DNA from: Candidatus Rifleibacteriota bacterium
GTDB lineage: Bacteria; Muiribacteriota; Ozemobacteria; Ozemobacterales; Ozemobacteraceae
NCBI GenBank assembly: GCA_012517355.1
Contig: JAAYVD010000172.1
Coordinates: forward strand, 64,081-128,080
Reading direction: 5' to 3'
DNA: 64,000 nucleotides
In this document: positions 11,197 through 51,657 of the stretch, in pieces
Numbering within the stretch: the first letter of the stretch is position 1
Layout of the letters: every line of letters begins with the position of its first letter
Position numbers and translations under genes: made by a program
Notes under the pieces: generated by a model
The model's database searches: none
What the model was told of the DNA's origin: nothing
The model's input: only the letters and a program-made list of their open reading frames with translations

Positions 11197-11703
11197 ATGC
11201 ATCGGATGTTGGCGATCGGGGTTGTCGTCGTCCTGGTCTCGGCGATGGTGGTGCCGGTGGTTGCCGACGCCACGGCCGCGGACGGCCGACCCTTCGCGCC
11301 CTTCCTCGGGGAATGGCGTGGGGTGGCCAAAGCCCTCAACCGGCACGTCCTGGACCCCCTCATCCCCTTCTGCCTCACGGTCGAGCCCGCCGGCACCTTT
11401 TCCGGGAGGATCGGCCCCATGAAGATCCTCTCGGGGCACGTCGTCGAAGGGAAGGCCGCCCCCGCCCACCTCGCCAGGAGGGGCGGACACATTCTCGCCC
11501 TGGAGGTGGAAGGGCAGGTGACCCCGGCCTGGCCCATCGAGCGGTTCCCGTATGTTCTCTGGGTGAGCCGTCTGCAGGGGGCGGTCGAGGGGGAGATCAT
11601 CGGGAAGGGAATCGATTCCCGCCTCGGTGTTCCCGATACCGTGACCTACCGCATCCTGTCCTGGGACAGGTTCATTTCTGGAAACCCGCCGAGGAATCGA
11701 TGA
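11197..11703 (+). CDS. hypothetical secreted protein
   Basis: ATG 11197 three nt after DUF1622 stop; signal peptide MHRMLAIGVVVVLVSAMVVPVVADA; GAAGGGGGAG RBS. Confidence 0.6.
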   Translation: MHRMLAIGVVVVLVSAMVVPVVADATAADGRPFAPFLGEWRGVAKALNRHVLDPLIPFCLTVEPAGTFSGRIGPMKILSGHVVEGKAAPAHLARRGGHILALEVEGQVTPAWPIERFPYVLWVSRLQGAVEGEIIGKGIDSRLGVPDTVTYRILSWDRFISGNPPRNR

Positions 11704-12240
11704 GATTGTCGCAACCCGTTGACCAAGGCCATTCGAAACGAGGTCCGCCAGACCACCTGGCCGCCATTGGTGGCGTGACGAACCTCCCGTTTCACGCTCC
11801 GCCTGGGGACCGACCGCCACGAAATCGGGCAGACCTCCTTTCCGGCATGGATGGAGGGGTGAACCGTCCGGTGTCCGGGTGGTCGGTGGGCCGGCCGGCC
11901 CCAGGCCGGAAGGAACCTCTGTCCCCCAAAGAGGGCGGCGCGCAACACCTGTTTCGCGGATCGCGCCTGGGTCGTCTGTCGGTTCTCCTCGGGCTCTTCA
12001 TCTTGACCGTGGGGTTGGGAATGGCCCGGGTGCTGCCGGACGGGGGCGCCGTCCTGGAGAAGACCATCTTTCGTCAATGTCGCGAATCCGCAAGAGTTCA
12101 TTGAGCTCCATCCGGACGGCGGATTTCTTGTCCACCGGGGGGGCATGACCGGTCTGGGCGATACACGGTTTCCGGCAAGACAGAATCCAGAACTGGCGGG
12201 AGGCGGGGTTGCCCTACCCATCGGCAGTGACCGGGATCAT

Positions 12241-12420
12241 GCTTTCCATAAGAAAGCAATGATCCGCATTAAGGCTTGCCGAAGGGGCTTTGCCCCTTCA
12301 CCCCACCAGGGCCGATGGCCCTGGACCCTTTCTGCTGGCGAGGTGAACGCTGATGCATTCACCTCGCGGAAGCTCCGCTTCGCGGTTCGTTAGCCCTGGA
12401 CCGGACGGTAGAAAAAAAGA
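12241..12420 (-). repeat. structured ~165-nt intergenic repeat, family A copy 1 (inverted relative to copy 2 at 49237..49420)
   Basis: Reverse complement aligns at ~90% identity with 49237..49420 (tctaccgtccggtccagggctaacg...agggtccagggccatcggccctggtgg...ggcaaagccccttcggcaagcc...atgcggatcattgct); contains perfect hairpins (ccagggcc-atc-ggccctgg; gaggtgaa-N10-ttcacctc). Confidence 0.8.
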
Positions 12421-12506
12421 CCCTCTTGGAAAAGAAGCTCGGCATTCTGGGCAAAGACGATTTCGGAAAAGTCACGGAAAACCTGAGGAAAACCCTGGAA
12501 TCATGA

Positions 12507-12540
12507 GCCAAAACCGCCCCTCCGGGGGGGAGGGGCGGTC
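12507..12540 (-). terminator. rho-independent terminator downstream of serC
   Basis: Minus strand: ccgcccctc-ccccccg-gaggggcgg followed by TTTTGG, about 55 nt after serC stop. Confidence 0.5.
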
Positions 12541-12596
12541 GGATGGGGCAGCGACGGGCGGGCCGGGGAGCCGGCCCGCGCCGGGAAGCGGTCAGC

Positions 12597-13682
12597 TCAG
12601 CGGTTGGCCTTGGCGAAGTCGTCCATCAGCTTGGCGAGGGCGCGGGCGCCGTCGACCGGCATGGCGTTGTAGACCGAGGCGCGGCAGCCGCCGACGCTGC
12701 GGTGGCCCTTCAGGCCGTCGAGTTTCTGCTTCTTCGCTTCCTCGAGGAACTTGGCCTCGAGTTCCTCGGTCTTCATCCGGAAGACGATGTTCATCTTCGA
12801 CTGGCAGGCCTTCGGCACCGGGCAGGTGTAGAAGCCGTTGGAGCGGGCGATCGCGTCGTAGATGATGCCCGACCGCTCGGCCGCGAGCTTCTCGGCCGCC
12901 GGCAGGCCGCCGATGCCCTTCAGCCATTCCATGGTGAGCTTGATCGCCCAGATGGTGAAGACCGGGGGGGTGTTGTACATCGAGTTCTCTTTGACGTGGA
13001 GCCGGAAGTCGAGATAGTTGATGATGCTCTCCGGGCACTTCTTCAGCAGGTCCTCGCGCATGATCACGATGCAGGCGCCGGCGGGGCCGGCGTTCTTCTG
13101 GGCGCCGGCGTAGATCAGGGCGAACTTCTCGACCGGCACGCGGCGGCTCATGAAGTCGGAGGACATGTCACAGAACAGCGGCACGTTGCCGACGTCCGGC
13201 CAGTCCTGCCACTGAACCCCGCCGATCGTCTCGTTCGAGGTCATGTGGAAGTAGGCCGCGTCGGGGCTGGCCTTCAGGCTCTTGGGGTCGGGCAGGTTCA
13301 GATAGTTGTCGGCCTTGCCGTCCCAGACCACGTTGACCTTGCCCACCTTCTTGGCATCCTCGATGGCCTTCTTGGCCCAGGCCCCGGTGTTGGTGTAATC
13401 GGCGGACTTGCCGCCCCACAAAAAGTTCATCGGGATCATGCCGAACTGCAGCGTGGCGCCACCGCCCAGGATCAGCACCTTGTGGGTGTCGGGAACCCCG
13501 AGCAATTCCTTGATGAGGGCGAGGCACTGGTTGTGCATCTCGTCGACCACCTTGCCGCGGTGGCTCATCTCGATGAGGGACATCCCCTTCCCCTGGAAAT
13601 CGACGATCTCGTCGCGGATCTTCTCGAGGACGGGGACGGGCAGGATGGACGGTCCTGCGCTGAAGTTGAAGATGCGGGCCAT
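12597..13682 (-). CDS. serC: 3-phosphoserine/phosphohydroxythreonine aminotransferase
   Basis: Full-length SerC match (MARIFNFSAGPSILP..., PLP-lysine region GGAQKNAGPAG). Confidence 0.95.
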   Translation of the reverse strand: MARIFNFSAGPSILPVPVLEKIRDEIVDFQGKGMSLIEMSHRGKVVDEMHNQCLALIKELLGVPDTHKVLILGGGATLQFGMIPMNFLWGGKSADYTNTGAWAKKAIEDAKKVGKVNVVWDGKADNYLNLPDPKSLKASPDAAYFHMTSNETIGGVQWQDWPDVGNVPLFCDMSSDFMSRRVPVEKFALIYAGAQKNAGPAGACIVIMREDLLKKCPESIINYLDFRLHVKENSMYNTPPVFTIWAIKLTMEWLKGIGGLPAAEKLAAERSGIIYDAIARSNGFYTCPVPKACQSKMNIVFRMKTEELEAKFLEEAKKQKLDGLKGHRSVGGCRASVYNAMPVDGARALAKLMDDFAKANR

Positions 13683-14686: not shown

Positions 14687-14874
14687 GGAACAGGGCTCCT
14701 TTCCTTGTTGATGGTGGAATTCTCAACCGCACGCCCACCCTAGCACCCCCCCCGGTCCGTGTCAACCCGCGTTGGGTGCTGATGCCGGCCTGGCCGATAT
14801 TCCCGCCCATCCTTGGGCTTTTCGTCCCGAGGCGACCGGCCCGAGGCCGGATGGGCCCCGCCCCCGTCACGGCG

Positions 14875-15060
14875 GGCGGCGCGAAACGCCCGTTTCGCGC
14901 ATCGCAAAGGGGCCGACCGACACGATGTCGGAAGTGCCCCTTTGCCGCCACGGATGGCGGCGCGAAACGCCCGTTTCGCGCATCGCAAAGGGGCCGACCG
15001 ACACGATGTCGGAAGTGCCCCTTTGCCGCCACGGATGGCGGCGCGAAACGCCCGCCTGGC
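14875..15060. repeat. 81-bp tandem repeat (2.3 copies), each unit carrying two perfect hairpins (family B)
   Basis: Unit ggcggcgcgaaacgcccgtttcgcgcatcgcaaaggggccgaccgacacgatgtcggaagtgcccctttgccgccacggat; unit starts at 14875, 14956, 15037; hairpins gcgcgaaacg/cgtttcgcgc and gcaaaggggc-N20-gcccctttgc; lies in the divergent serA / 15149 intergenic region. Confidence 0.85.
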
Positions 15061-16291: not shown

Positions 16292-16317
16292 CCCTCCGGA
16301 CACCCGTCTGATCCACC

Positions 16318-16740
16318 TCCTCCTTCTCTCATTCCCCCATCGTTCCTGCCGTCGCCGACCCAACCGGCGACTCCCTTCGCCATTTCCCCCTCTTCCCCCC
16401 TTCCCCTGCCGTTCTCAAAGTTTCCGTCGCTCACGGTTTTTCTGACTCTCCCGCCTCTTCTCTCCCCCTCCTCCTCCGCCTCTCCTTCCCCGATCGCCCT
16501 CCATCGCCGATTCAGCCGGCGATTCCCTTCGCCATTTCCCCCTCTTCCCCCCTTCCCCTGCCGTTCTCGAGGTTTCAATCGTTCGCAGTTTGCCTGACTC
16601 TCCTGCCTTTCGCTTGCCTCAACTTCACCTTCTCTCCTCCCCCCACCGATCCTGCCGTCGCCCACCCAACCGGCGACTCCCTTCGCATCACCTCTTCATT
16701 CTCCTGTCCCTTTCAAGGGTTCAACCGATGGGCGGAAGTC
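16318..16740 (+). repeat. CT-rich ~150-bp tandem repeat, ~2.7 copies (family C)
   Basis: Repeated ccaaccggcgactcccttcgccatttccccctcttccccccttcccctgccgttctc[ga]a[ga]gtttc... at ~16362, ~16509, ~16664; >80% pyrimidine on plus strand. Confidence 0.8.
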
Positions 16741-17022: not shown

Positions 17023-17487
17023 TGGTGATTCCTCCAGATGGATTTGCAGACTGCCACGTAGGCGGAAAGACGCGCCATACTACAGTACCATCCGGGAAAA
17101 GTAAAGCGGGCTCCCCCCATCGCTTCCGGACGGTCTCTTGGCGCTTCGCCAGACGGGCGTCCCACGCCGTCGGCCGTGGCGGCAAAGGGGAACCTTCCGA
17201 CAGCCTTCCGACAGCCTTCCGACAGCTGCCGGTCGCCCTGCTTGCCGCGCTCAAAAAGCGGGCTTCGCCTTGCCCGCCGGATCTCTTCGGAGGCCCTTTC
17301 CGTCATCGCGCCGGTCGGCCGCCGTCCCTCCCCGCCCGGAAAACCCCTGCCGGAGGTTTCCAACGCCAGGCCAGGGTTTCGCCCCTGCAATCGGATGGCG
17401 GGGTCGGCACGATTGTGGTAGTATTCCCCACCTTCGCCCCGGGGGAGGAGGCTCCCCCAACATCGAGATCGGGAGGGAATGCCTGGT

Positions 17488-23474: not shown

Positions 23475-23640
23475 ACCAGGTTCGGACCGACACGACATCG
23501 GAGGCTCCCCCTTCCCGCCACGGATGTCGGCGCGAAGCCCCCAATCATAAGCCGCGCAGCGGCCACAGACCCGCTGCCGGCCCGATCGCCAAGCCCACGG
23601 ATGTCGGCACCAAGCCCCGAATGCGTGCCGCGCCAGCGGG
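23475..23640. repeat. degenerate family-B-related hairpin repeats
   Basis: gaccgacacgacatcggaggctcccccttcccgccacggatgtcggcgcgaagcccc and gcccacggatgtcggcaccaagcccc resemble the 81-bp unit at 14875..15060. Confidence 0.5.
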
Positions 23641-24644: not shown

Positions 24645-27600
24645 CTAGAACTTCTTCATCGAGATCAGCGACTGGTCTTGCAGCACCTCCTCCTTCAGGG
24701 GACAATCGTGAAGGTGGTCGCAGCTCTTGCAGTACTTGTTCTTCCTGGGGGCGAACTCCTTCTCGTTGATCATCGCGTAGGCGGTCTTGTCGACCTGCTC
24801 GACGACCTTGGGCACGTCCTCGCGGGTGCGGGTGGTGGTGATCTTGGCGTCGTGGTCGAGCATGAACAGCGACAGCTTGCTGATCTTCAGGCCGAGCGCG
24901 TCCTCGCAGGCCCAGTAGTAGATGCTCAGCTGCTTGTCGTGGTCGACCTCGTCCTGGGTGCGCATGGTCGGCTCGGTCTTGTAGTCGAGGATCTCGTAGG
25001 TGCCGTCCGGAAGCTTGTCGATGCGGTCGATGAAGCCGGTCATGACGGCATACTTGCCACACGGCAGCTCGAAGTAGTCCTCGATCGAGTGGGCCGGGGC
25101 GAACGGCTGGTCCTTGATGAACCGGTTGTAGTAGAGGGTGATCTGCCGGATGCCGTCCTGCCGGTAGCGCTCCTCGATCTCTTCCGAGGCCATGCCTTCG
25201 CGGTGGGTGAGCCGGACCTCGTCGTAGATCTTCAACACCTCCTCGAGGGAAGGCTTGGGGCGCGGGTTGCCGGGGTCGTAGATATGCTCGAAGGTCTCGT
25301 GGATGGTGGTGCCGAAGCTGAAGAACGGCTGCGGCTTGGGCGGCACGCGGTCGAGGTAGAGCCGCTTGTAGGCGCGCGGGCAGTTCAGATACAGGCTCAT
25401 CTTCGAGTAGCTGAGCCGGATGCGCTTGCGGAACACCTCGGGGGTCTCGCCGGCCATCTGGAACGGCTTGACCTTCCACTCCGGGCAGGGGTTGTAGAAC
25501 TCGCACCAGGCGCACAGGGCGCCCTTGTTGGGTTCCCATTTCGCCTCGGTGATGCCGGCGACGATCTTGCGGAGCCGCTTCTTGTGGGCCTCGATATGCT
25601 CGGACTCCGGGGTGAGGCTCATCTTTTTGTTGGCGGCCAGGAAGATGTACGACACCTTGGCCACCTGGCCCGGCCAGCGCTGGCTGGCCGCCAGGTACAT
25701 GTTCAGCAGACCCATGTCCTCGTGGATGATCCGCTCGTCGGGGATCTTCTTGCCCGACTTGTAGTCGATGATCTCGTATTTGCCGTCCGGGAGCTGGTCG
25801 ACCCGGTCGATCTGCACCGCCAGATCGAGGTCGTCGAACGTCCAGCGGGCCGAGGTCTCGAACATGACCGGGTTCTCCTCCCCGGTCAGGCCGTTGAAAT
25901 ACTCCTCGAGCATCTGCATGCCGCGGCTCTTGAAACGCTGTTCCTCTTCCCAATCGGTGTAGCCGCCGTCGATCCAGTGCTTGGCCAGCAGCTCCCGGAA
26001 CGGGTTGACCTTCTGCATCTTCCGCTCGAAATGCTCGTGGTACTCGCGCAGGGCGTAGTGCAGTGACCGGTCGAAGTTCAGGTGCGGGGTGGGGCGGGGC
26101 TCCTTGGGCACCCGGTCGATGTAGTTCATCTTGTATTTGAGCGGGCAGGACAGGAAGGAATTGATCTTGCTGGGAGACAGCAGCATCCGCTTCGCGTCCT
26201 CGCAACGGTCGAGGTAATCGCAGTAGGGGCAGAGGGGATTGCGGTTCCCCTCGAACTCCCCGCGGGCGTTCTCGTCCTGGAACTCGCTGACCGCCAGCTT
26301 CAGCCGCTCGAGATCGCGCGGCGACGGGGTGAACACCACCCGCTCGCCCGGCAGCAGGTACAGGAAGGTGGTGCGCTCGACCTTGCCGGGCCAGGTCAGG
26401 CTGGCCACGGTGTGGGTGAGCACCCCCGACAGGTCGATCTCGGCCTCGTGCACGGTCATCGGCCGCTTGGTGGTCTTGTAGACGAACACCTCGTAATTGC
26501 CGTTGGGCAGGATGTCGACCCGGTCGAACCCGGCGCTCAGCACGACCCCCTCGAAGGGCGCGCGGGCCTGGTCGGCCAGGGTGCGCACGCGCGGCCGCTT
26601 CCCCTCGAGCGACTCGAGGAAGTTCTTCAGCGCCTTCTTGCCCGTCTCCTCGAGGAACTGCCGGGCCTGCAGGCTGAGCGAGACGTCGGTCGGGATGCGG
26701 GTCAGGTAGTACTTGTACAATTTCTCGAGATCCGCCGACTGGTTGAGGGCGAAGAAGTCGCGCAGGACGTCGCGCACCACCTGGTTGAGCAGCAGGGCCG
26801 GCCGTTCTTTGTCGGGAACCGGGGCCCGCTCGAGGTAGCGGAACTTGTACTTGCGCGGGCATTCCCGCAGGGTCTGGATCTTGGCCGTGGTCGCGGTCAG
26901 CGCCTGGAACTGGCACTGGGTCGCGGCGCGGCAGGTGGAACAGCCCGGCCCGCCAAGCGTCTCGAACTCCTTGCGCCGCATCCGTTCGCTGATGTCCTCG
27001 AGCAGGTCGATCCCGTGCTTGGTCATGAACTCGTCGACCTCGACGGTGACCGCCCGGGCGGCGCGCAGGTAGAGGTGGGTGAACCGCTTCACCCGCCCCG
27101 GCCATTTCGCCGCGGCGACGGCGCAGGTGATGGCCGACACCGGGTCGATCTTCAGCTCGCCCTCGTCCTTCACGCTCTTGCCGGTCTTGTAGTCGATCAG
27201 CTCGAGCGAGCCGTCCGGGTGCTCGTCGATGCGGTCGATGGTGATCTGGAAATCGTAGCGCTCGGTCGACAGGGAGAGGAACTCGTTGATGAAGCGGGTG
27301 TGCGATTTCGGGTAGAGCAGCTTGAAATAGAGCTGCAACAGCTCGCGCCCGGTCTCCTTCATCAGCACGACCGTCTCTTCGGGGAAGGTCTTGGGCACGG
27401 CCTCGTAGAAGCGGGCGAACAGGTATCCCTGCGGGTCGCCGTGGGCGGCCGGCTTGAAATCGCGGTGCAGGGCGGTCAGGGCGTCGTGCAGCGCGCGGTC
27501 GAGGGCCAGGTCGGTGGAGGGCTCGGCCGGTTCGGCGCGCCCCGCCGTCCGGTGCAGGTAGTAGTGGGCGAACTTCTGGGGGCACTCGAGGAAGGTGCGC

Positions 27601-28493
27601 ACCTTGGTCGAGGTCAGGGCGGGCACCTGCCCGACCGGGCAGGACTCGCGGAAATCGCAGAAGGGGCAGGCGGACGACCGCACGGGCTGGAACTTCCCCT
27701 GGTAGATCGCTTCCCCGATCTCGAGGTAGGTCTTCTTCCCCTGGGCCAGCAGCGCCGGCGAGCGCTGGACGGTGAGCGCCACCCCCTCGCGCAGGAACAG
27801 GTGGGTGACCTTCTGCACCTTCCCCGGCCAGATCACGTCGCCGGCCAGGAACAGGAGCTGGATGGGCAGACTCTGCGTCAGTTCGGCGGCTCCGCCGGCG
27901 GGGGTCTTCCCGCTCTTGTAGTCGATGATCTCGATCGAGCCGTCGGGATGCTGGTCGACGCGGTCCATGCGGCCGCTGAACTCCCCGCCGAACAGGTCGA
28001 TCTTGAAGAAGTAGTCGATCTCGACCGCCCGGGGCGGGGTCTGGCAGAAGTTCTGGTGGAACAGGCGCAGGGCCGCTTCGGCGTCGTGCCGGAACTGCTG
28101 CTCCTGCTCGGCCGACTCGTAGCCGCGGGAATCCCAGCTGGTGCCCAGCAGCTGCATCAGCTTCTCGAGCTTGAGGGGCTCGTTGGCCCCGCGGCTCTTG
28201 AAGAAGACCTTCAGGGCGGTGTGCAGGCTCTGGTCGAACGACAGGTTGGGCGCGGGGGCGGTTCCCTGCGGCGCCTTCTCGATGTACGAGAAGTGGAACT
28301 TCTTGGGGCAGGTGCGGTAGACCTCGATCTTGCCCGGGGTCAGCGGGATCTTGAATTTTTTCTGGGGCGGGGCGGCCGGTGGGGTGGGGGGCCGCGGCGG
28401 CCGTCCGGGCGGGGCGGCTTCGGGGGGCTTCTTCTCGAGGTTCTCCTTCGTCTTGCGGAACAGCTTCTGGAACAGGTTCGGCTTGTCGGCCAT
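24645..28493 (-). CDS. giant nuclease with five tandem Cas4/AddB-type Fe-S PD-(D/E)XK (RecB-family) modules
   Basis: ORF 24645..28529. Five ~250-aa repeats, each with an N-terminal Cys (CPKKF / CPQKF / CPRKY / CPLKY / CPRAY), motif II G-x-hDRhD, motif III hhDYK(S/T)GK (repeat 3 degenerate: VFVYKTTK) and a C-terminal CxxCx5C triad. Start taken at second Met (28493, GAGGA RBS 7 nt upstream); first Met 28529 overlaps a TATAAT. Confidence 0.85.
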   Translation of the reverse strand: MADKPNLFQKLFRKTKENLEKKPPEAAPPGRPPRPPTPPAAPPQKKFKIPLTPGKIEVYRTCPKKFHFSYIEKAPQGTAPAPNLSFDQSLHTALKVFFKSRGANEPLKLEKLMQLLGTSWDSRGYESAEQEQQFRHDAEAALRLFHQNFCQTPPRAVEIDYFFKIDLFGGEFSGRMDRVDQHPDGSIEIIDYKSGKTPAGGAAELTQSLPIQLLFLAGDVIWPGKVQKVTHLFLREGVALTVQRSPALLAQGKKTYLEIGEAIYQGKFQPVRSSACPFCDFRESCPVGQVPALTSTKVRTFLECPQKFAHYYLHRTAGRAEPAEPSTDLALDRALHDALTALHRDFKPAAHGDPQGYLFARFYEAVPKTFPEETVVLMKETGRELLQLYFKLLYPKSHTRFINEFLSLSTERYDFQITIDRIDEHPDGSLELIDYKTGKSVKDEGELKIDPVSAITCAVAAAKWPGRVKRFTHLYLRAARAVTVEVDEFMTKHGIDLLEDISERMRRKEFETLGGPGCSTCRAATQCQFQALTATTAKIQTLRECPRKYKFRYLERAPVPDKERPALLLNQVVRDVLRDFFALNQSADLEKLYKYYLTRIPTDVSLSLQARQFLEETGKKALKNFLESLEGKRPRVRTLADQARAPFEGVVLSAGFDRVDILPNGNYEVFVYKTTKRPMTVHEAEIDLSGVLTHTVASLTWPGKVERTTFLYLLPGERVVFTPSPRDLERLKLAVSEFQDENARGEFEGNRNPLCPYCDYLDRCEDAKRMLLSPSKINSFLSCPLKYKMNYIDRVPKEPRPTPHLNFDRSLHYALREYHEHFERKMQKVNPFRELLAKHWIDGGYTDWEEEQRFKSRGMQMLEEYFNGLTGEENPVMFETSARWTFDDLDLAVQIDRVDQLPDGKYEIIDYKSGKKIPDERIIHEDMGLLNMYLAASQRWPGQVAKVSYIFLAANKKMSLTPESEHIEAHKKRLRKIVAGITEAKWEPNKGALCAWCEFYNPCPEWKVKPFQMAGETPEVFRKRIRLSYSKMSLYLNCPRAYKRLYLDRVPPKPQPFFSFGTTIHETFEHIYDPGNPRPKPSLEEVLKIYDEVRLTHREGMASEEIEERYRQDGIRQITLYYNRFIKDQPFAPAHSIEDYFELPCGKYAVMTGFIDRIDKLPDGTYEILDYKTEPTMRTQDEVDHDKQLSIYYWACEDALGLKISKLSLFMLDHDAKITTTRTREDVPKVVEQVDKTAYAMINEKEFAPRKNKYCKSCDHLHDCPLKEEVLQDQSLISMKKF

Positions 28494-28530
28494 GGGTGTG
28501 TCCTCGTTTTGCGCGTGGCGATATGCCATC

Positions 28531-36855: not shown

Positions 36856-36929
36856 GCCGGTTCCCTTGGGAACCGAGGAGCAGGGGAATGGGTGAATCGG
36901 GGGAAGGGGCGAGCGGGGCCGGCAGCAGG

Positions 36930-36971: not shown

Positions 36972-37018
36972 CGTTCAGATCGGAAAAAACGGTGACTTCC
37001 TGTCGGAGGCCTGGAACG

Positions 37019-37786
37019 ATGAAATTTGACGAACTCGACGCCCGGATGCGGGTGTTCGAAACCTCGCTGGACCAGCACATCGTCCCCGGGATCTTCGTGG
37101 TCGTGCGGCTCGACGGGCGGTCGTTCACCCGGCTGACCAAGGAGACCTCCGGATTCGAGGCCCCATTCGACGTCCGGTTCCGGGACCTGATGATCCACAC
37201 GACCCGGCACCTCATGCATTGCGGCTTCAACGTCGTCTTCGGATACACGCAGAGCGACGAGATCTCCCTGCTGTTCCCGCCCGCGGAAACCCTGTTCGAA
37301 CGCAAGGTCCGCAAGATCCTCTCGATCCTGGCAGGCGAAGCCAGCGCGGCCTTCTCGCTGAAGCTCGGCGCCATCGGGGTCTTCGATGCCCGCATCTGCC
37401 AGTTGCCCACCGGGGACCTGGTCGCCGACTACTTCCGGTGGCGAAGTGAGGATGCCGGCCGGAACTGTTTGAACAGCCATTGCTACTGGCTCCTGCGGAA
37501 AACCGGGGTGTCGGGGAGCAAGGCCTTCCAGCAACTGGCAGGGCTGTCCGTCAGGGAGAAGAACGAATTTCTTTTTCGCCACGACATCAACTACAATGAC
37601 CTTCCCTCCTGGCAGAAGCGCGGAACGGGCCTCTACTGGGAGGAATACCGGAAGAAAGGGTTCAACCCGATGACCAGGCAGGAAGTCGAAGCCACCCGTC
37701 GACGCCTCAAGGTCGACCTGGAACTGCCGATGAAACAGGATTTCGAACGGTTGATCCGCCGCCTGCTGAAAGATCATGGCTGCTAG
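37019..37786 (+). CDS. Thg1-like protein (tRNA-His guanylyltransferase family, 3'-5' nucleotidyltransferase)
   Basis: [49 protein letters not shown] align with eukaryotic/archaeal Thg1 hallmarks ([49 protein letters not shown]). Confidence 0.85.
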   Translation: [255 protein letters not shown]

Positions 37787-38155
37787 GCAACCAATCACCC
37801 CCACCGGACGCCCCTTCCCAGGGCCTTCCCGTCGTTCGCCCTTTCCCTTTTTTCCGCTGGCGCGCCCCGCCGCACCCGCTCCCCTTCCTCTGGATCCTCT
37901 TTCCGGAATGCGGCCCGCTCCTTACGCCTCGGCCGTTACTGTTCCGGTCCCGTTTTTTCCCTTTCTCCCAGTCCTGCCGGTGCATCCAGGCCGGCTCCCG
38001 GTCTCCCCTCGTTTCGGCCGGCCCCGCTCGCCCCTTCTCCCGCTTCCCCCTTTCCCCTCTGCCCGGGCCCCCGTCCCCAAAGTTCGGGCCACCCCGCCAT
38101 GCAACCTCGCTCCAGAACCCCTTGCCTTCCACTCATCCTTCGCCTCCGGAGGTCG

Positions 38156-47717: not shown

Positions 47718-48866
47718 TTGGTCATGAGAATCCGTTATCTGGGTTTCCTGGTCCTTTTCGCCGCTGCGGCCGTGATCCTGACCGGTTGTGGCAACGATCC
47801 CGACAAGAACTTCCAGAAAGGGAAGTATGCCGAGGCCTACCCCGAGTTCATCAAGCGGGCCGGCACCAACGAGGTGGCCCTGAAGAACGAAGTCGCCAAC
47901 GGCACCTTCGATTCCCGGCAGAAAGCCGGCAACCAGGCCCTCCATGACCTCTACTACGCGGCCGAATGCCAGAAGCGGCTCGGCAACACCCAGGAAGCCG
48001 CCACCCTTTTCCAGCGCGTGGTGGGCCTGAGCCAGTACCAGATCCGCATCCCCCAGGACCGCAGCGCCATCCTGAAGGACGGGCTGTCCAGCCTGCTGAG
48101 CGCCGCCCGCGAGGTCCGTCGCCAGGAGGTCAGCTACGGCCAGGCCCTCGAAGACTGGGAGAACGACCAGTCCTCCGGCAACACCGACCCCTACGACAAC
48201 GGTGGCTCCAATACCGATCCGTATGACAACGGTGGCTCCAATACCGATCCGTATGACAACGGTGGCTCCAACACCGACCCCTACAGCAACGGTGGCTCCA
48301 ACACCGACCCCTACAGCAACGGCGGCTCCAATACCGACCCCTACAACAGCCGCACCACCAACAACGTCGCCAAGGCCGCCTCGACCGCCGAGGCCCCCAG
48401 CCGGTTCTGGCTCGACAACGCCGTCTCCACCCTGCGCAGCCGGCAGCGCGACTTCGAAAAGAAACTCTACGAGACCACCCCGCAGCAGGTTCCCGACATC
48501 GCCAAGGTCAAGGCCGAATACGACAAGTTCTCCCGCCTCCTCGACAACTACATGTCGTATGCCTCCCCCGGCGGCATCTTCTTCCGGCCCGACTCCCTGT
48601 TCTCCCAGATGGCCTGGCAGTCCTTCGAGTCCGGCGCCGACTCCCTGCAGCGCGTGACCTACGCCGCCCAGGGCAACATCACCTACATCAGCCAGCCCCT
48701 GCAGCTGAAGGAACCCCAGTTGGTCGAAGCCGCCAAGGCCGCCCTCCAGAGCATGGGCCAGGCCTCCGCCCCCGCGACCCCGGCCAGCCCCGCCGGTGCC
48801 CAGAGCACCTCCGGCACCACCGGCGTCACCGTCAACACCGAAGGCAACAGTCCCTTCGGCCAGTAA
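47718..48866 (+). CDS. TPR-like lipoprotein, paralog 3, with (GGSNTDPY[DS]N)x6 repeat
   Basis: Lipobox LTGC; six tandem 30-nt repeats at 48182..48358. Confidence 0.65.
   Translation: MVMRIRYLGFLVLFAAAAVILTGCGNDPDKNFQKGKYAEAYPEFIKRAGTNEVALKNEVANGTFDSRQKAGNQALHDLYYAAECQKRLGNTQEAATLFQRVVGLSQYQIRIPQDRSAILKDGLSSLLSAAREVRRQEVSYGQALEDWENDQSSGNTDPYDNGGSNTDPYDNGGSNTDPYDNGGSNTDPYSNGGSNTDPYSNGGSNTDPYNSRTTNNVAKAASTAEAPSRFWLDNAVSTLRSRQRDFEKKLYETTPQQVPDIAKVKAEYDKFSRLLDNYMSYASPGGIFFRPDSLFSQMAWQSFESGADSLQRVTYAAQGNITYISQPLQLKEPQLVEAAKAALQSMGQASAPATPASPAGAQSTSGTTGVTVNTEGNSPFGQ
48182..48358 (+). repeat. 30-bp in-frame tandem repeat x6 encoding GGSNTDPY(D/S)N
   Basis: Near-identical 30-mers inside the 47718..48866 CDS. 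Confidence 0.9.
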
Positions 48867-49236
48867 CCGGCCAGATCCTCTGGGGGCAGCCCGTCAGTCG
48901 CCCTCAGGAAGAGTTCCCGCAAGAGCCCTCCGGCCCCTCCGGGGGGCTCCTGCGTTGCGGGCGCTTTATCGGGCGCCTTCCCGGGCGGCTCCGGCCCGGT
49001 GGAAGGCTGGTGGGGGGGGCACGCCCAAAAGGGTTCCTGTGGGCCCCCCGCGGGCCAGGCTTCCCTCGCCCCCCACGCGGCACCGTGTCCCCGCCGCGGC
49101 AGGCGCCAACGGGTGTCTGGCCGGCCTCTGGTCGGTCGTCGAGCCCTCGGCGCCCCTTCTGGTCGGCGGATCGGTCGTCGAGGTCTTGGCGCAGCTTCGG
49201 GTCGGCGCCCGGTCGTCGAGTCTCAGCGCTCTTTCT

Positions 49237-49420
49237 CTACCGTCCGGTCCAGGGCTAACGGACCGCGAAGCGGAGCTTCCGCGAGGTGGACGCGTCAGCG
49301 TTCTCCTCGCCAGCAGAAAGGGTCCAGGGCCATCGGCCCTGGTGGAGTGAAGTGGCAAAGCCCCTTCGGCAAGCCTTTATGCGGATCATTGCTCTTTCTG
49401 GTCGCCGTTTCGGTGGTCGA
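49237..49420 (+). repeat. family A structured repeat copy 2 (inverted to copy 1 at 12241..12420), flanked by partial duplications of the 3' end of the adjacent small gene
   Basis: About 90% identity to reverse complement of 12241..12420; flanking sub-repeats ggtcgtcgagccctcggcgccccttctggtcggcg (49130-49165) and ggtggtcgagccgtcagcgccccttctggtcggcg (49440-49475). Confidence 0.8.
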
Positions 49421-49462
49421 GGCCTCGGAGCCCCTTCCGTCGCCGTTTCGGTGGTCGAGCCG

Positions 49463-49666
49463 TCAGCGCCCCTTCTGGTCGGCGATGAAGGCGGCGATGG
49501 TCCGATCGTAGGTCCGCTCGCCCTTGGGCGAGAAGAAACACCCCGGCACTTCGCCGTTCATGCGATGATACGCCACGCACTCGCAGCAGATCCCCTTCCG
49601 CGAGCACGGATCGTGGGTGCAGGTGCACCGCCCCCCGTTCTTGGCTTTGCATTCGGCATTCGACAT
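49463..49666 (-). CDS. small cysteine-rich protein (67 aa; DUF6485-like)
   Basis: MSNAECKAKNGGRCTCTHDPCSRKGICCECVAYHRMNGEVPGCFFSPKGERTYDRTIAAFIADQKGR; AGGAGGG RBS; 9 Cys. Confidence 0.7.
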   Translation of the reverse strand: MSNAECKAKNGGRCTCTHDPCSRKGICCECVAYHRMNGEVPGCFFSPKGERTYDRTIAAFIADQKGR

Positions 49667-49789
49667 ACAACCCTCCTGAAAATGGGTGCCCGAATTCCGC
49701 GGTCTTCAACGAATCCGTTCGAACGGCCATCGACGTCCGCAAAGCGGGCCTGTTGCTTGGGGAACGCGGAACCGTTTCCCAAGCCCGAA

Positions 49790-49900
49790 ACAAGGGTCCA
49801 GGGCCATTGGCCCCGGTGGGGTGAAGAGACAAAGTCCCTTCCGAAAGCCTTGAGGCAGAAAACGGTTCCCCCGGACCATTTTTCTGAGGCCCTCCAGATG
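49790..49900 (+). repeat. partial, diverged family A copy 3
   Basis: agggtccagggccattggccccggtggggtgaagagacaaagtcccttccgaaagcctt versus the family A core. Confidence 0.6.
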
Positions 49901-49959: not shown

Positions 49960-51657
49960 CTACCGGTTCTCGTAGGCCCTGACGACGAAGACCCCCGTAG
50001 CCGTGCCGGGAAGGGGGCACTTGTGCTCGCAGATGCCGCATCCGATGCAACGTTCGGGGACCACGTAGGGGAATTTCACCTTCCGGCGGCTGCCGTCGGG
50101 CAGGTCGACCTCCCGCTCGTGGGTCTGGATCGCCTTTTCCGGCAGCGGACAGTGCTCCTCGCAAACCAGGCAGTCGGTCAGCTTCGCATAGGGAATGCAG
50201 TGGTTCTTGTTGAAGCAGGCCTGCCCCATGACGGTCTTCTGCTTCTCGGCTTCCGGCAGCCGCTTGATCGCGCCGGTCGGGCACACCTGGCCGCACAGGT
50301 TGCAGTTGTACTCGCAGTAACCGGCCTTCATGTGGGCCCGTGGCGTCCACAGGCGGGGGAAACCCGCCTCGAACCCGGCCGGCTGCAGGCAGCCCCCGTT
50401 CGAGGAACAGACCCGCACGCAGGCCAGGCACCGGATGCACCGCTCGAGGAAGGCCGGTTCCGGCAACGCTCCGGGCGGCCGGATCAGCTGGCTGGAAACC
50501 CGCGGGTCGTCGAGGGCCACCCGCGCCCCACCGGCCGCCAGAAGCCCCCCTGCCGCCGCCTGCAGCAGCCGGCGACGGGTCAGGTCGACGGGAGTGACCG
50601 CGGCGAACCCCAGCGGCACGGTCGGCACGGGCATTCCTTCCGGCCACGGGGCCCAGCCGGGGACGAACCCGATGGCCCGCAGGCCGACGGGGCAATGGTC
50701 GAGGCAGTCGAGGCAGAGGGTGCATTCGCCCCGCGCCGTCGCCGTCACGTCATCATCGGGGATCGCCCCCATCGGGCACCGGCGCGAGCACTGGCGGCAC
50801 TGCACGCACGACGAGTCGACCTGCCGGCGCACCCCCCGGAACCGGGAACACAGGGCCAGCAGCGCTCCGGCGGGGCAGAGGGTCCGGCACCAGAAGCGGC
50901 GCGTCACCCACTCGGTGGCCAGCAGCCCGAGGAAGAAGACGGCGGTGAACCAGAAGAAGGCCGGCTCGGTCTGCCCCTCGGGCATGACCCAGCCCCGCAG
51001 CGAGCGCCGCAGGGTTCCGGCCAGGCCGCCGGCGCCGGGAACCAGCTCGAGCAGACCCGCCACGCCCTGGGCGGCCCAGGTGCCGAGAGGGAACAGGACC
51101 ACCGTCATGCCGCGGTTGGCGACCGCCAGAGGGTCGAAGAAGAACCAGGCGTGCAGCCCCGCCACGGCGGCGGCGACCACCGCCGCCAGCACCAGGAACT
51201 TTCCCGCCGGCCAGCTCCGGGCCTGGGCGCCCTGCCGTGCCTGGTCGGCCGGGGCGAGCCGTTCCCCGACCAGGTCGAGCATCGCCCCCAACGGGCAGAC
51301 CCAGCTGCAGAAAAAGCGGCCCAGCAACGGGGTCAGCGCCAGCACCACCAGGCCGGGCCACCAGGCCCATGGCACGGCCCGGTCGGCCGCCCCGAAGAAC
51401 AGGGGGGCGAGCGGGCTGGTGCGCAACAGCAGGTCGGGAGCGGGTGACGGGTGGAAGGGATATCGCATCCGCACGAACAACACCACGAAGGCGACCAGGA
51501 AAACCGCCTGGACCAGGCGTCGCCCGCCGGGCATTCCCGGCCAGCGCAGCCACGGCACCAACCCCGCCAGGCGGGTCACCAGCCGGGCCAGCCACGGCAC
51601 CCGTTCAGCCAAACCGTTCGGCCCCTGGCGCGCCTCTCCTTCTCCGGACCCGGCCAT
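49960..51657 (-). CDS. membrane-bound polyferredoxin: NapH-like N-terminal domain fused to NapG-like 4x[4Fe-4S] domain with internal twin-arginine motif
   Basis: CSWVCPLGAM and CRTLCPAGAL motifs in TM region; internal TRRRLLQAAAGGLLAAGGA; about 24 Cys in CxxCxxCxxxCP arrays in C-terminal half; 4-nt gap after upstream DUF362 gene. Confidence 0.8.
   Translation of the reverse strand: MAGSGEGEARQGPNGLAERVPWLARLVTRLAGLVPWLRWPGMPGGRRLVQAVFLVAFVVLFVRMRYPFHPSPAPDLLLRTSPLAPLFFGAADRAVPWAWWPGLVVLALTPLLGRFFCSWVCPLGAMLDLVGERLAPADQARQGAQARSWPAGKFLVLAAVVAAAVAGLHAWFFFDPLAVANRGMTVVLFPLGTWAAQGVAGLLELVPGAGGLAGTLRRSLRGWVMPEGQTEPAFFWFTAVFFLGLLATEWVTRRFWCRTLCPAGALLALCSRFRGVRRQVDSSCVQCRQCSRRCPMGAIPDDDVTATARGECTLCLDCLDHCPVGLRAIGFVPGWAPWPEGMPVPTVPLGFAAVTPVDLTRRRLLQAAAGGLLAAGGARVALDDPRVSSQLIRPPGALPEPAFLERCIRCLACVRVCSSNGGCLQPAGFEAGFPRLWTPRAHMKAGYCEYNCNLCGQVCPTGAIKRLPEAEKQKTVMGQACFNKNHCIPYAKLTDCLVCEEHCPLPEKAIQTHEREVDLPDGSRRKVKFPYVVPERCIGCGICEHKCPLPGTATGVFVVRAYENR

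Follow-up and report, generated by a model that had tools for sequence, protein, structure and literature searches.

A 155-bp interspersed repeat from uncultured Ozemobacteraceae that is probably a non-autonomous, MITE-like transposable element

The window, i.e., the whole stretch of 64,000 nucleotides that was analyzed, contains two regions in which copies of a short repeat, termed family A, are found between genes. Copy 1 is located beside a serC-like gene in an unusually long gap without genes (11704-12596, about 890 bp); the GC3 profile and gene calls on the same DNA (ENA assembly, L016) agreed with this predicted gap. Copies 2 and 3 lie on either side of a 67-aa DUF6485 gene (49463-49666, reverse strand), which had been missed before. 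Copy 2 is neighbored by the DUF6485 gene and a TPR-like gene (47718-48866, forward strand), the latter with a 30-nt in-frame tandem repeat of at least six units (48149-48388). Copy 3 precedes the DUF6485 gene by 60-70 nt and follows a polyferredoxin gene (49960-51657, reverse strand). Since copy 3 separates two co-directional genes, the original prediction that all copies sit at the 3' ends of convergent gene pairs does not apply to it.

A repeat search of the window revealed two family A arms (12255-12419 and 49229-49393) that are 94% complementary over 165 nt, which bears out the inverted repeat of about 165 nt proposed for 12241-12420 and 49237-49420. The search also returned a third copy at 49737-49859 (74% identity over 123 nt), which is direct relative to copy 2 and was placed at 49727-49866 by a covariance model. 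Thus, a third copy exists as proposed, slightly shifted from the position given for it previously (49790-49900). Based on the alignment of 13 copies, the family A unit was delimited to 155 bp, CAATGATCCGC...CCGGACGGTAG (Table 1). Copy 1 matched the covariance model with a score of 178 bits over model positions 1-156, and copy 2 was about 95% identical to copy 1. The 22-nt core GGGCCRATGGCCCYGGACCCTT was found three times in the window, as compared to zero times in 100 shuffles. With a G+C content of 63%, family A contrasts with typical AT-rich MITEs; the host genome has about 68% G+C. No codon-position G+C signal was observed in 12250-12420, and the overlapping ORFs were only spurious. When the window and 27 loci (about 285 kb of related DNA) were searched with the covariance model, no further diverged copies beyond the 13 known ones were detected.

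Table 1. Positions of the family A copies, their flanks, their hairpins and the target array in the window.
Feature	Position	Strand	Evidence or remark
Copy 1, full length	12257..12411	+	Repeat search; covariance-model match; ends set against copy 2
Copy 1 left flank, TAAGAAAG, decayed target-site duplication	12249..12256	+	6/8 identical to right flank
Copy 1 right flank, AAAAAAAG, other half of decayed target-site duplication	12412..12419	+	Read from sequence
Hairpin across left boundary of copy 1, 13-bp stem	12234..12265		DNA fold
Hairpin H1, GAAGGGGC-TTT-GCCCCTTC, 8 bp	12281..12299		DNA fold -7.8 kcal/mol; 3/8 pairs changed on both sides
Hairpin H2, CCAGGGCC-GAT-GGCCCTGG, 8 bp, most conserved core	12306..12324		DNA fold -8.8 kcal/mol
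Hairpin H3, GCGAGGTGAA...TTCACCTCGC, 10-11 bp	12338..12367		DNA fold -12.2 kcal/mol, z = -6.6; 4/11 pairs compensatory
Small hairpin H3b, GAAGC-TCC-GCTTC, 5 bp	12369..12381		-2.4 kcal/mol, weak; 81% of cells paired
Putative 3' hairpin H4, GTTCG...CGGAC (GGTCCGTT...AACGGACC in MAG copies), poorly supported	12385..12406		76% of cells paired
38-nt tandem array, five units, target of copy 2	49132..49484	-	Repeat search; periodicity
Copy 2 target-site duplication, 3' side, AGAAAGAG on element forward strand	49229..49236	-	8/8 identical to 49392-49399
Copy 2, full length, in unit 3 of 38-nt tandem array	49237..49391	-	Repeat search; covariance model
Copy 2 target-site duplication, 5' side	49392..49399	-	Sequence comparison
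Copy 3, old, diverged (74%), without 3' end, orientation as copy 2	49727..49866	-	Repeat search; covariance model

The mode of insertion could be read from copy 2. This copy sits within one unit of a 38-nt tandem array, and a perfect 8-bp duplication, AGAAAGAG, borders it on both sides. Once the element and one 8-mer (163 bp) were taken out of 49229-49399, the spacing of the array was restored to exactly 38/38/38/39. Both AGAAAGAG duplicates depart from the array consensus AGAAGGGG at the identical two positions. Thus, the duplication was made at insertion, as in a textbook target-site duplication. Only copy 2 has a perfect duplication (8/8); in other copies, the flanks agreed at 7/8, 6/8, 6/8, 6/8, 4/8 and 3/8 positions, with 7/8 for the copy at locus L006 and 6/8 each for L004, L002 and copy 1. 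The A-rich flanks of these other copies could partly reflect target preference instead of duplication. Since copies 1 and 2 are about 95% identical, at least one of these insertions was recent. Regarding the array itself, it lies directly downstream of the DUF6485 gene, and every unit consists of the last 18 nt or so of that gene including its stop codon (GACCAGAAGGGGCGCTGA) plus about 20 nt.

The relative age of copies 2 and 3 was deduced from orthologous loci. The polyferredoxin encoded in the window shares 93% identity with that of the MAG GCA_964554555.1 and 65% with that of Ca. Ozemobacter sibiricus, and GCA_964554555.1 was therefore regarded as a sister species. The window also encodes a phosphoserine aminotransferase identical to that of an NCBI MAG named Candidatus Riflebacteria bacterium, and these matches place the host among the uncultured Ozemobacteraceae. 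At its orthologous locus (L018), the next gene begins only 100 nt away from the DUF6485 gene, and neither the array nor copy 2 is present; about 190 nt further (about 48940-49110 in the window) are missing there as well. The orthologue of copy 3 is retained upstream of the DUF6485 gene (about 11768-11920). Ca. O. sibiricus has 28 nt between its polyferredoxin and DUF6485 genes, and copies 2 and 3 are both absent there. Since copy 3 occurs in both sister species, it was inserted before their split. Since copy 2 is missing from L018, it was inserted after the split, which fits its identity to copy 1. L018 offers no precise empty site for copy 2 because the whole array is missing there, too.

In the sister species, scanning for the exact 22-nt core uncovered at least eight further copies on eight contigs of GCA_964554555.1, at unrelated intergenic sites, and the same scan found one partial copy in another, more distant Ozemobacteraceae MAG. 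The family thus comprises 13 copies at unrelated loci of three genomes, and its insertions differ between the sister species. The genes flanking the copies in the sister MAG belong to unrelated housekeeping functions (HD-domain protein, FMN reductase, ECF sigma factor, M48 peptidase, CheR-HEAT). Across the family, the gene contexts were convergent, tandem and divergent, with copies in either orientation relative to their neighbors. Most copies in the sister MAG are located between A-runs that resemble each other, and the target of family A is an A/T-rich stretch of intergenic DNA. Since A/T tracts in a genome with about 68% G+C are largely confined to intergenic DNA and terminators, the copies gather at the 3' ends of genes. 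Within the element, a break was also seen in a Logan contig (L017) of the same sequencing run, as expected of a genomic repeat. Beyond the clade, metagenome contigs scanned with the core pattern gave only chance matches of 25-27 nt to hairpin H2, viral contigs scanned with the same pattern gave none, and a distant blastn search of plasmid and phage collections returned no match. Thus, family A appears confined to this Ozemobacteraceae clade. The same 25-nt H2 match, with no other element sequence, was seen in four unrelated metagenome contigs (L011, L013, L014 and L015) and is either due to chance or an independent conserved hairpin.

The gap around copy 1 was inspected further. The hairpin foreseen there is real (12234-12265, -11.3 kcal/mol, z = -5.0) and spans the left boundary of the copy. 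Its right arm is formed by the flank and the first 8 nt or so of copy 1, and its left arm is an inverted duplicate of both. No counterpart was found at copy 2, and the covariance model detected no element sequence further left of the hairpin. The hairpin could have been left behind by a second insertion in head-to-head orientation, or it could have arisen as a by-product of the insertion process. Orthologues of serC were used to look for an empty site of copy 1; in the relatives reached, the gene order following serC is not conserved. The DNA after copy 1 (12404-12505) has about 45-51% G+C and holds the ORF end ...KKLGILGKDDFGKVTENLRKTLES*. Its low-G+C tail (12414-12505) was considered as the terminal part of a MazF/PemK-like toxin gene that copy 1 had interrupted, as taking out copy 1 plus 8 bp joins the ...KKLGILGKDDFGKVTENLRKTLES* ORF in frame with upstream sequence. 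Since the joined ORF had neither a Pfam match nor a homologue among 5.8 billion proteins, the toxin-gene idea was dropped. Probably, the in-frame joining is due to chance or the ORF is a remnant that is fully orphan.

Other repeats accompany family A in the window. The family-B fragment predicted in the gap of copy 1 (11935-11975) was confirmed by the repeat search as part of a degenerate triple of the 81-nt family-B unit (11724-11972). This second interspersed family also forms a tandem of 2.4 copies with 97% identity (14864-15054) and occurs as solo or inverted fragments at 23478-23542, 17127-17193 (inverted) and 1342-1386 (inverted); an ENA contig of the same genome ends inside family B at about window position 15000. 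A 152-nt tandem repeat (16316-16686; 2.4 copies, 79% matches) is located in C/T-rich non-coding DNA. A 42-nt inverted repeat with 90% complementarity (36882-36923 and 38017-38058) brackets a Thg1-like gene (36992-37786) of the tRNA-His guanylyltransferase family, an arrangement that may be mobile or cassette-like. The gene at 24645-28529 (reverse strand) encodes a 1294-aa protein of unusual architecture with five tandem PD-(D/E)XK nuclease (Cas4-like) repeats, and the repeat search showed a periodicity of about 720-780 nt in its DNA.

The three hairpins of the original prediction (H1 to H3) are present and stable as DNA or RNA, with z-scores from -3.2 to -6.6. The whole element folds equally well on both strands (z = -5.6 for the forward and -5.4 for the reverse strand), while the fold of H4 was no better than that of shuffles. 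In order to assess covariation, a covariance model was built on five hairpins, the 13 copies were realigned with it and the pairs were then counted. Across the 13 copies, 87% of the pair cells were paired. H2 had 99% paired cells and a single swap, from C-G to G-C, in the MAG orthologue of copy 3. The swaps in H3, from G-C to U-A and from A-U to U-A, distinguish a young subfamily (GCGAGG/CCTCGC) from an old one (GCTTGG/CCAAGC). In total, 11 of 37 pairs were changed on both sides, as compared to 5.7 ± 1.7 in shuffles (3 of 500 reached 11) and 4-8 in slid controls. Thus, the covariance analysis revealed compensatory substitutions in H1 to H3. Since the structure guided the alignment and the copies share a common origin, this evidence is moderate rather than strong, and it suggests that three to four hairpins have been kept by compensatory changes. 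G·U pairs, which form only on the forward strand, numbered 23, and A·C pairs, which correspond to pairing only on the reverse strand, numbered 20; this balance means that neither strand is favored. As H1 to H3 are equally good on both strands, they are best read as DNA-level or strand-neutral structures, which might serve, e.g., as recognition or stability features of the element. Alternatively, they could act in read-through as part of a 3' UTR.

These properties were compared with those of known small mobile elements. Prokaryotic MITEs are shorter than 500 bp, with terminal inverted repeats of about 4-30 bp and with direct repeats that are present in young copies and fade with age; they insert in AT-rich intergenic DNA and give stable stem-loop transcripts (PMC10969869). 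Direct repeats of 7-9 bp are known, e.g., from QMITE2 of Coxiella burnetii and Chunjie of Geobacter (PMC10969869). Family A resembles these two in being multi-copy, non-coding and, with its 155 bp, shorter than 500 bp, in its intergenic location with A/T-rich targets and in its stable stem-loops. Moreover, as in these elements, the duplication is perfect in the youngest copy and decayed in older ones, and truncated inactive copies occur beside full ones. The differences concern the structure: family A has a high G+C content (63%), lacks a known parent IS and consists of three or four local hairpins in a row instead of one long fold-back of its ends. While QMITE2 has clear terminal repeats of 23-29 bp, the termini of family A match at only 13-14 of 28 positions without gaps. 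These matches fall on the same positions (TCCG, GGCT) in the window and MAG subfamilies (shuffle P = 0.004-0.012), with the pattern C..TG.TCCG....A.GGCT common to both termini; the best internal offsets score comparably. The terminal match is possibly a degenerate terminal inverted repeat. Since it was no better than the best internal offsets, this defining feature of MITEs is not firmly established for family A. Neither a transposase nor another autonomous partner was found by Pfam analysis among about 30 flanking or window proteins. A transposase was also looked for next to the L002 copy, whose 3' flank resembles the element start, and the neighbors there lack transposase domains.

An alternative reading of the fold is that family A represents small RNA genes or cis-regulatory RNAs, with hairpins under RNA selection and the copies as paralogous sRNA loci. 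The strong fold (z of about -5.5), the compensatory changes in H1 to H3 and the conservation of copy 3 in the orthologous 5'-leader position of the DUF6485 gene in two species, including the C-G to G-C swap in H2, would be in line with this. However, an Rfam 15 scan of the whole window at gathering thresholds gave no match, and at E ≤ 10 over 11700-12600 the best sub-threshold hits (E = 3.1 and 9.2) were noise. A sequence scan of copies 1 and 2, i.e., of young copies, returned no promoter-like and no terminator-like sites; the G·U and A·C counts show no strand preference; the copies occur in either orientation relative to neighboring genes; and the target-site duplication shows that copies arose by transposition. 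Thus, balanced wobbles, equal folding of both strands and the lack of Rfam matches, of promoter-like sites and of terminator-like sites in young copies leave nothing that marks family A as an RNA gene, and there is no sign of one with its own promoter. Judged from these sequence features, an RNA-gene origin is quite improbable. A somewhat better case, albeit still an unlikely one, can be made for a portable transcription-terminator module like the pneumococcal SPRITE, kept primarily for ending convergent or tandem transcription. Most copies lie just downstream of genes, and terminator-like MITEs have been documented (PMC10969869). Three old copies carry a T-run after H2, namely ACCCTTGTTT in copy 3, ATGCTTTTTG in its MAG orthologue at L018 and ACCCTTTTTTCT in the copy at L008. 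All three have lost the 3' end and lie forward between co-directional genes; the T-run was flagged by the terminator scan in copy 3 and recognized by eye in the other two. On the other hand, young full-length copies carry ACCCTTTCTGCT after H2, which is below the scan threshold, and on the reverse strand no hairpin is followed by a T-run. Furthermore, the serC-like gene beside copy 1 has a separate terminator hairpin of its own (about 12510-12540), the L009 copy directly follows the T-run of an existing terminator, the L005 copy is antisense to both of its neighbors and the L002 copy is located between divergent genes. SPRITE, BOX and RUP of Streptococcus pneumoniae are likewise small interspersed intergenic repeats of modular hairpins, and they tend to cluster with other repeat families, as family A does with family B and the 38-nt array. 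They have no sequence relation to family A, the 8-bp duplication could not be attributed to SPRITE or BOX from the texts compared, and SPRITE resembles rho-independent terminators, whereas in family A hairpin and T-run coincide only in older copies. Thus, of the three options raised originally, i.e., sRNA, MITE-like element and terminator, the MITE-like one is favored by the 8-bp duplication, the restored array, the insertion differences and the dispersal, the sRNA option is not upheld, and a terminator role comes into question for no more than the three old copies with a T-run. Such old copies between co-directional genes may have been retained as intrinsic terminators.

Fragments of IS ends were also weighed; these would derive from a known IS or from the guide or bridge RNA that belongs to it (omega-RNA of IS200/IS605, bridge RNA of IS110). 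The size of about 155-165 nt and the build of several hairpins resemble such end-encoded RNAs. However, neither IS200/IS605 nor IS110 is known to make an 8-bp target duplication such as the perfect one of copy 2. IS200/IS605-derived elements insert next to a fixed motif of 4-5 nt, while family A copies are flanked by variable A-runs. In addition, both ends are sharply defined and common to several full-length copies, none of the 13 copies has a transposase (tnpA), TnpB (tnpB) or recombinase gene next to it, and Rfam, plasmid and phage matches were absent. An origin from such ends or PATE-like derivatives is hence very unlikely. More copies than the three in the window and compensatory substitutions exist, and no known IS end was matched, which is a weak test as it was made without an IS-end library. 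REP, BIME and REPIN sequences share with family A the G+C-rich palindromic hairpins and the intergenic location, often at gene 3' ends or between convergent genes. REP units are single palindromes of about 20-40 nt that are thought to be moved by an HUH/RAYT enzyme, and they are not known to make a target duplication. In contrast, family A is a fixed 155-bp composite of four to five different hairpins with defined ends and an 8-bp duplication. Due to this target duplication and the fixed composite unit, family A is neither REP/REPIN nor of the IS200/IS605 type. The low number of copies in the window (three) might suggest chance similarity or a segmental duplication without mobility. This has next to no probability: none of 100 shuffles gave the core match, the copy flanks are unrelated beyond the 8-bp duplication, copies exist in two other genomes, and the array is restored upon removal of copy 2 and one half of its target-site duplication.

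Taken together, family A is most likely a non-autonomous, MITE-like transposable element, 155 bp long and non-coding, of an uncultured Ozemobacteraceae clade (Riflebacteria). It is a discrete insertion with an 8-bp target-site duplication, it is multi-copy and dispersed, and its insertions differ between sister species. It would be moved in trans by a transposase whose gene lies at another place in the genome; this enzyme would make 8-bp staggered cuts and recognize the degenerate ends with the pattern C..TG.TCCG....A.GGCT. A non-DDE mobilization route, e.g., one in which a reverse transcriptase or another non-DDE enzyme inserts the element into A/T tracts by target priming, is given only a marginal probability. 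On this route, an RNA or single-stranded DNA intermediate would be recognized by way of the conserved hairpins. The unconvincing terminal inverted repeat, the A-run targets and the A-rich duplications fit this route, none of them supporting it specifically; in particular, copy 2 has no A-tail between its 3' end and the duplication.

Family A is a new family of a kind of element that is already known. It provides a defined, datable mobile-element family for Riflebacteria/Ozemobacteraceae. So far, metagenomes are the only source from which this phylum is known. Family A is a small example of mobile hairpin modules retained between genes, where a terminator role is possible, and it opens no new mechanism. 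Should the partner transposase be found, the element would be assignable to a known IS family by its 8-bp duplication and its preference for A-tracts. Family A also helps to explain assembly breaks in these MAGs and gives insertion-polymorphism markers between close species.
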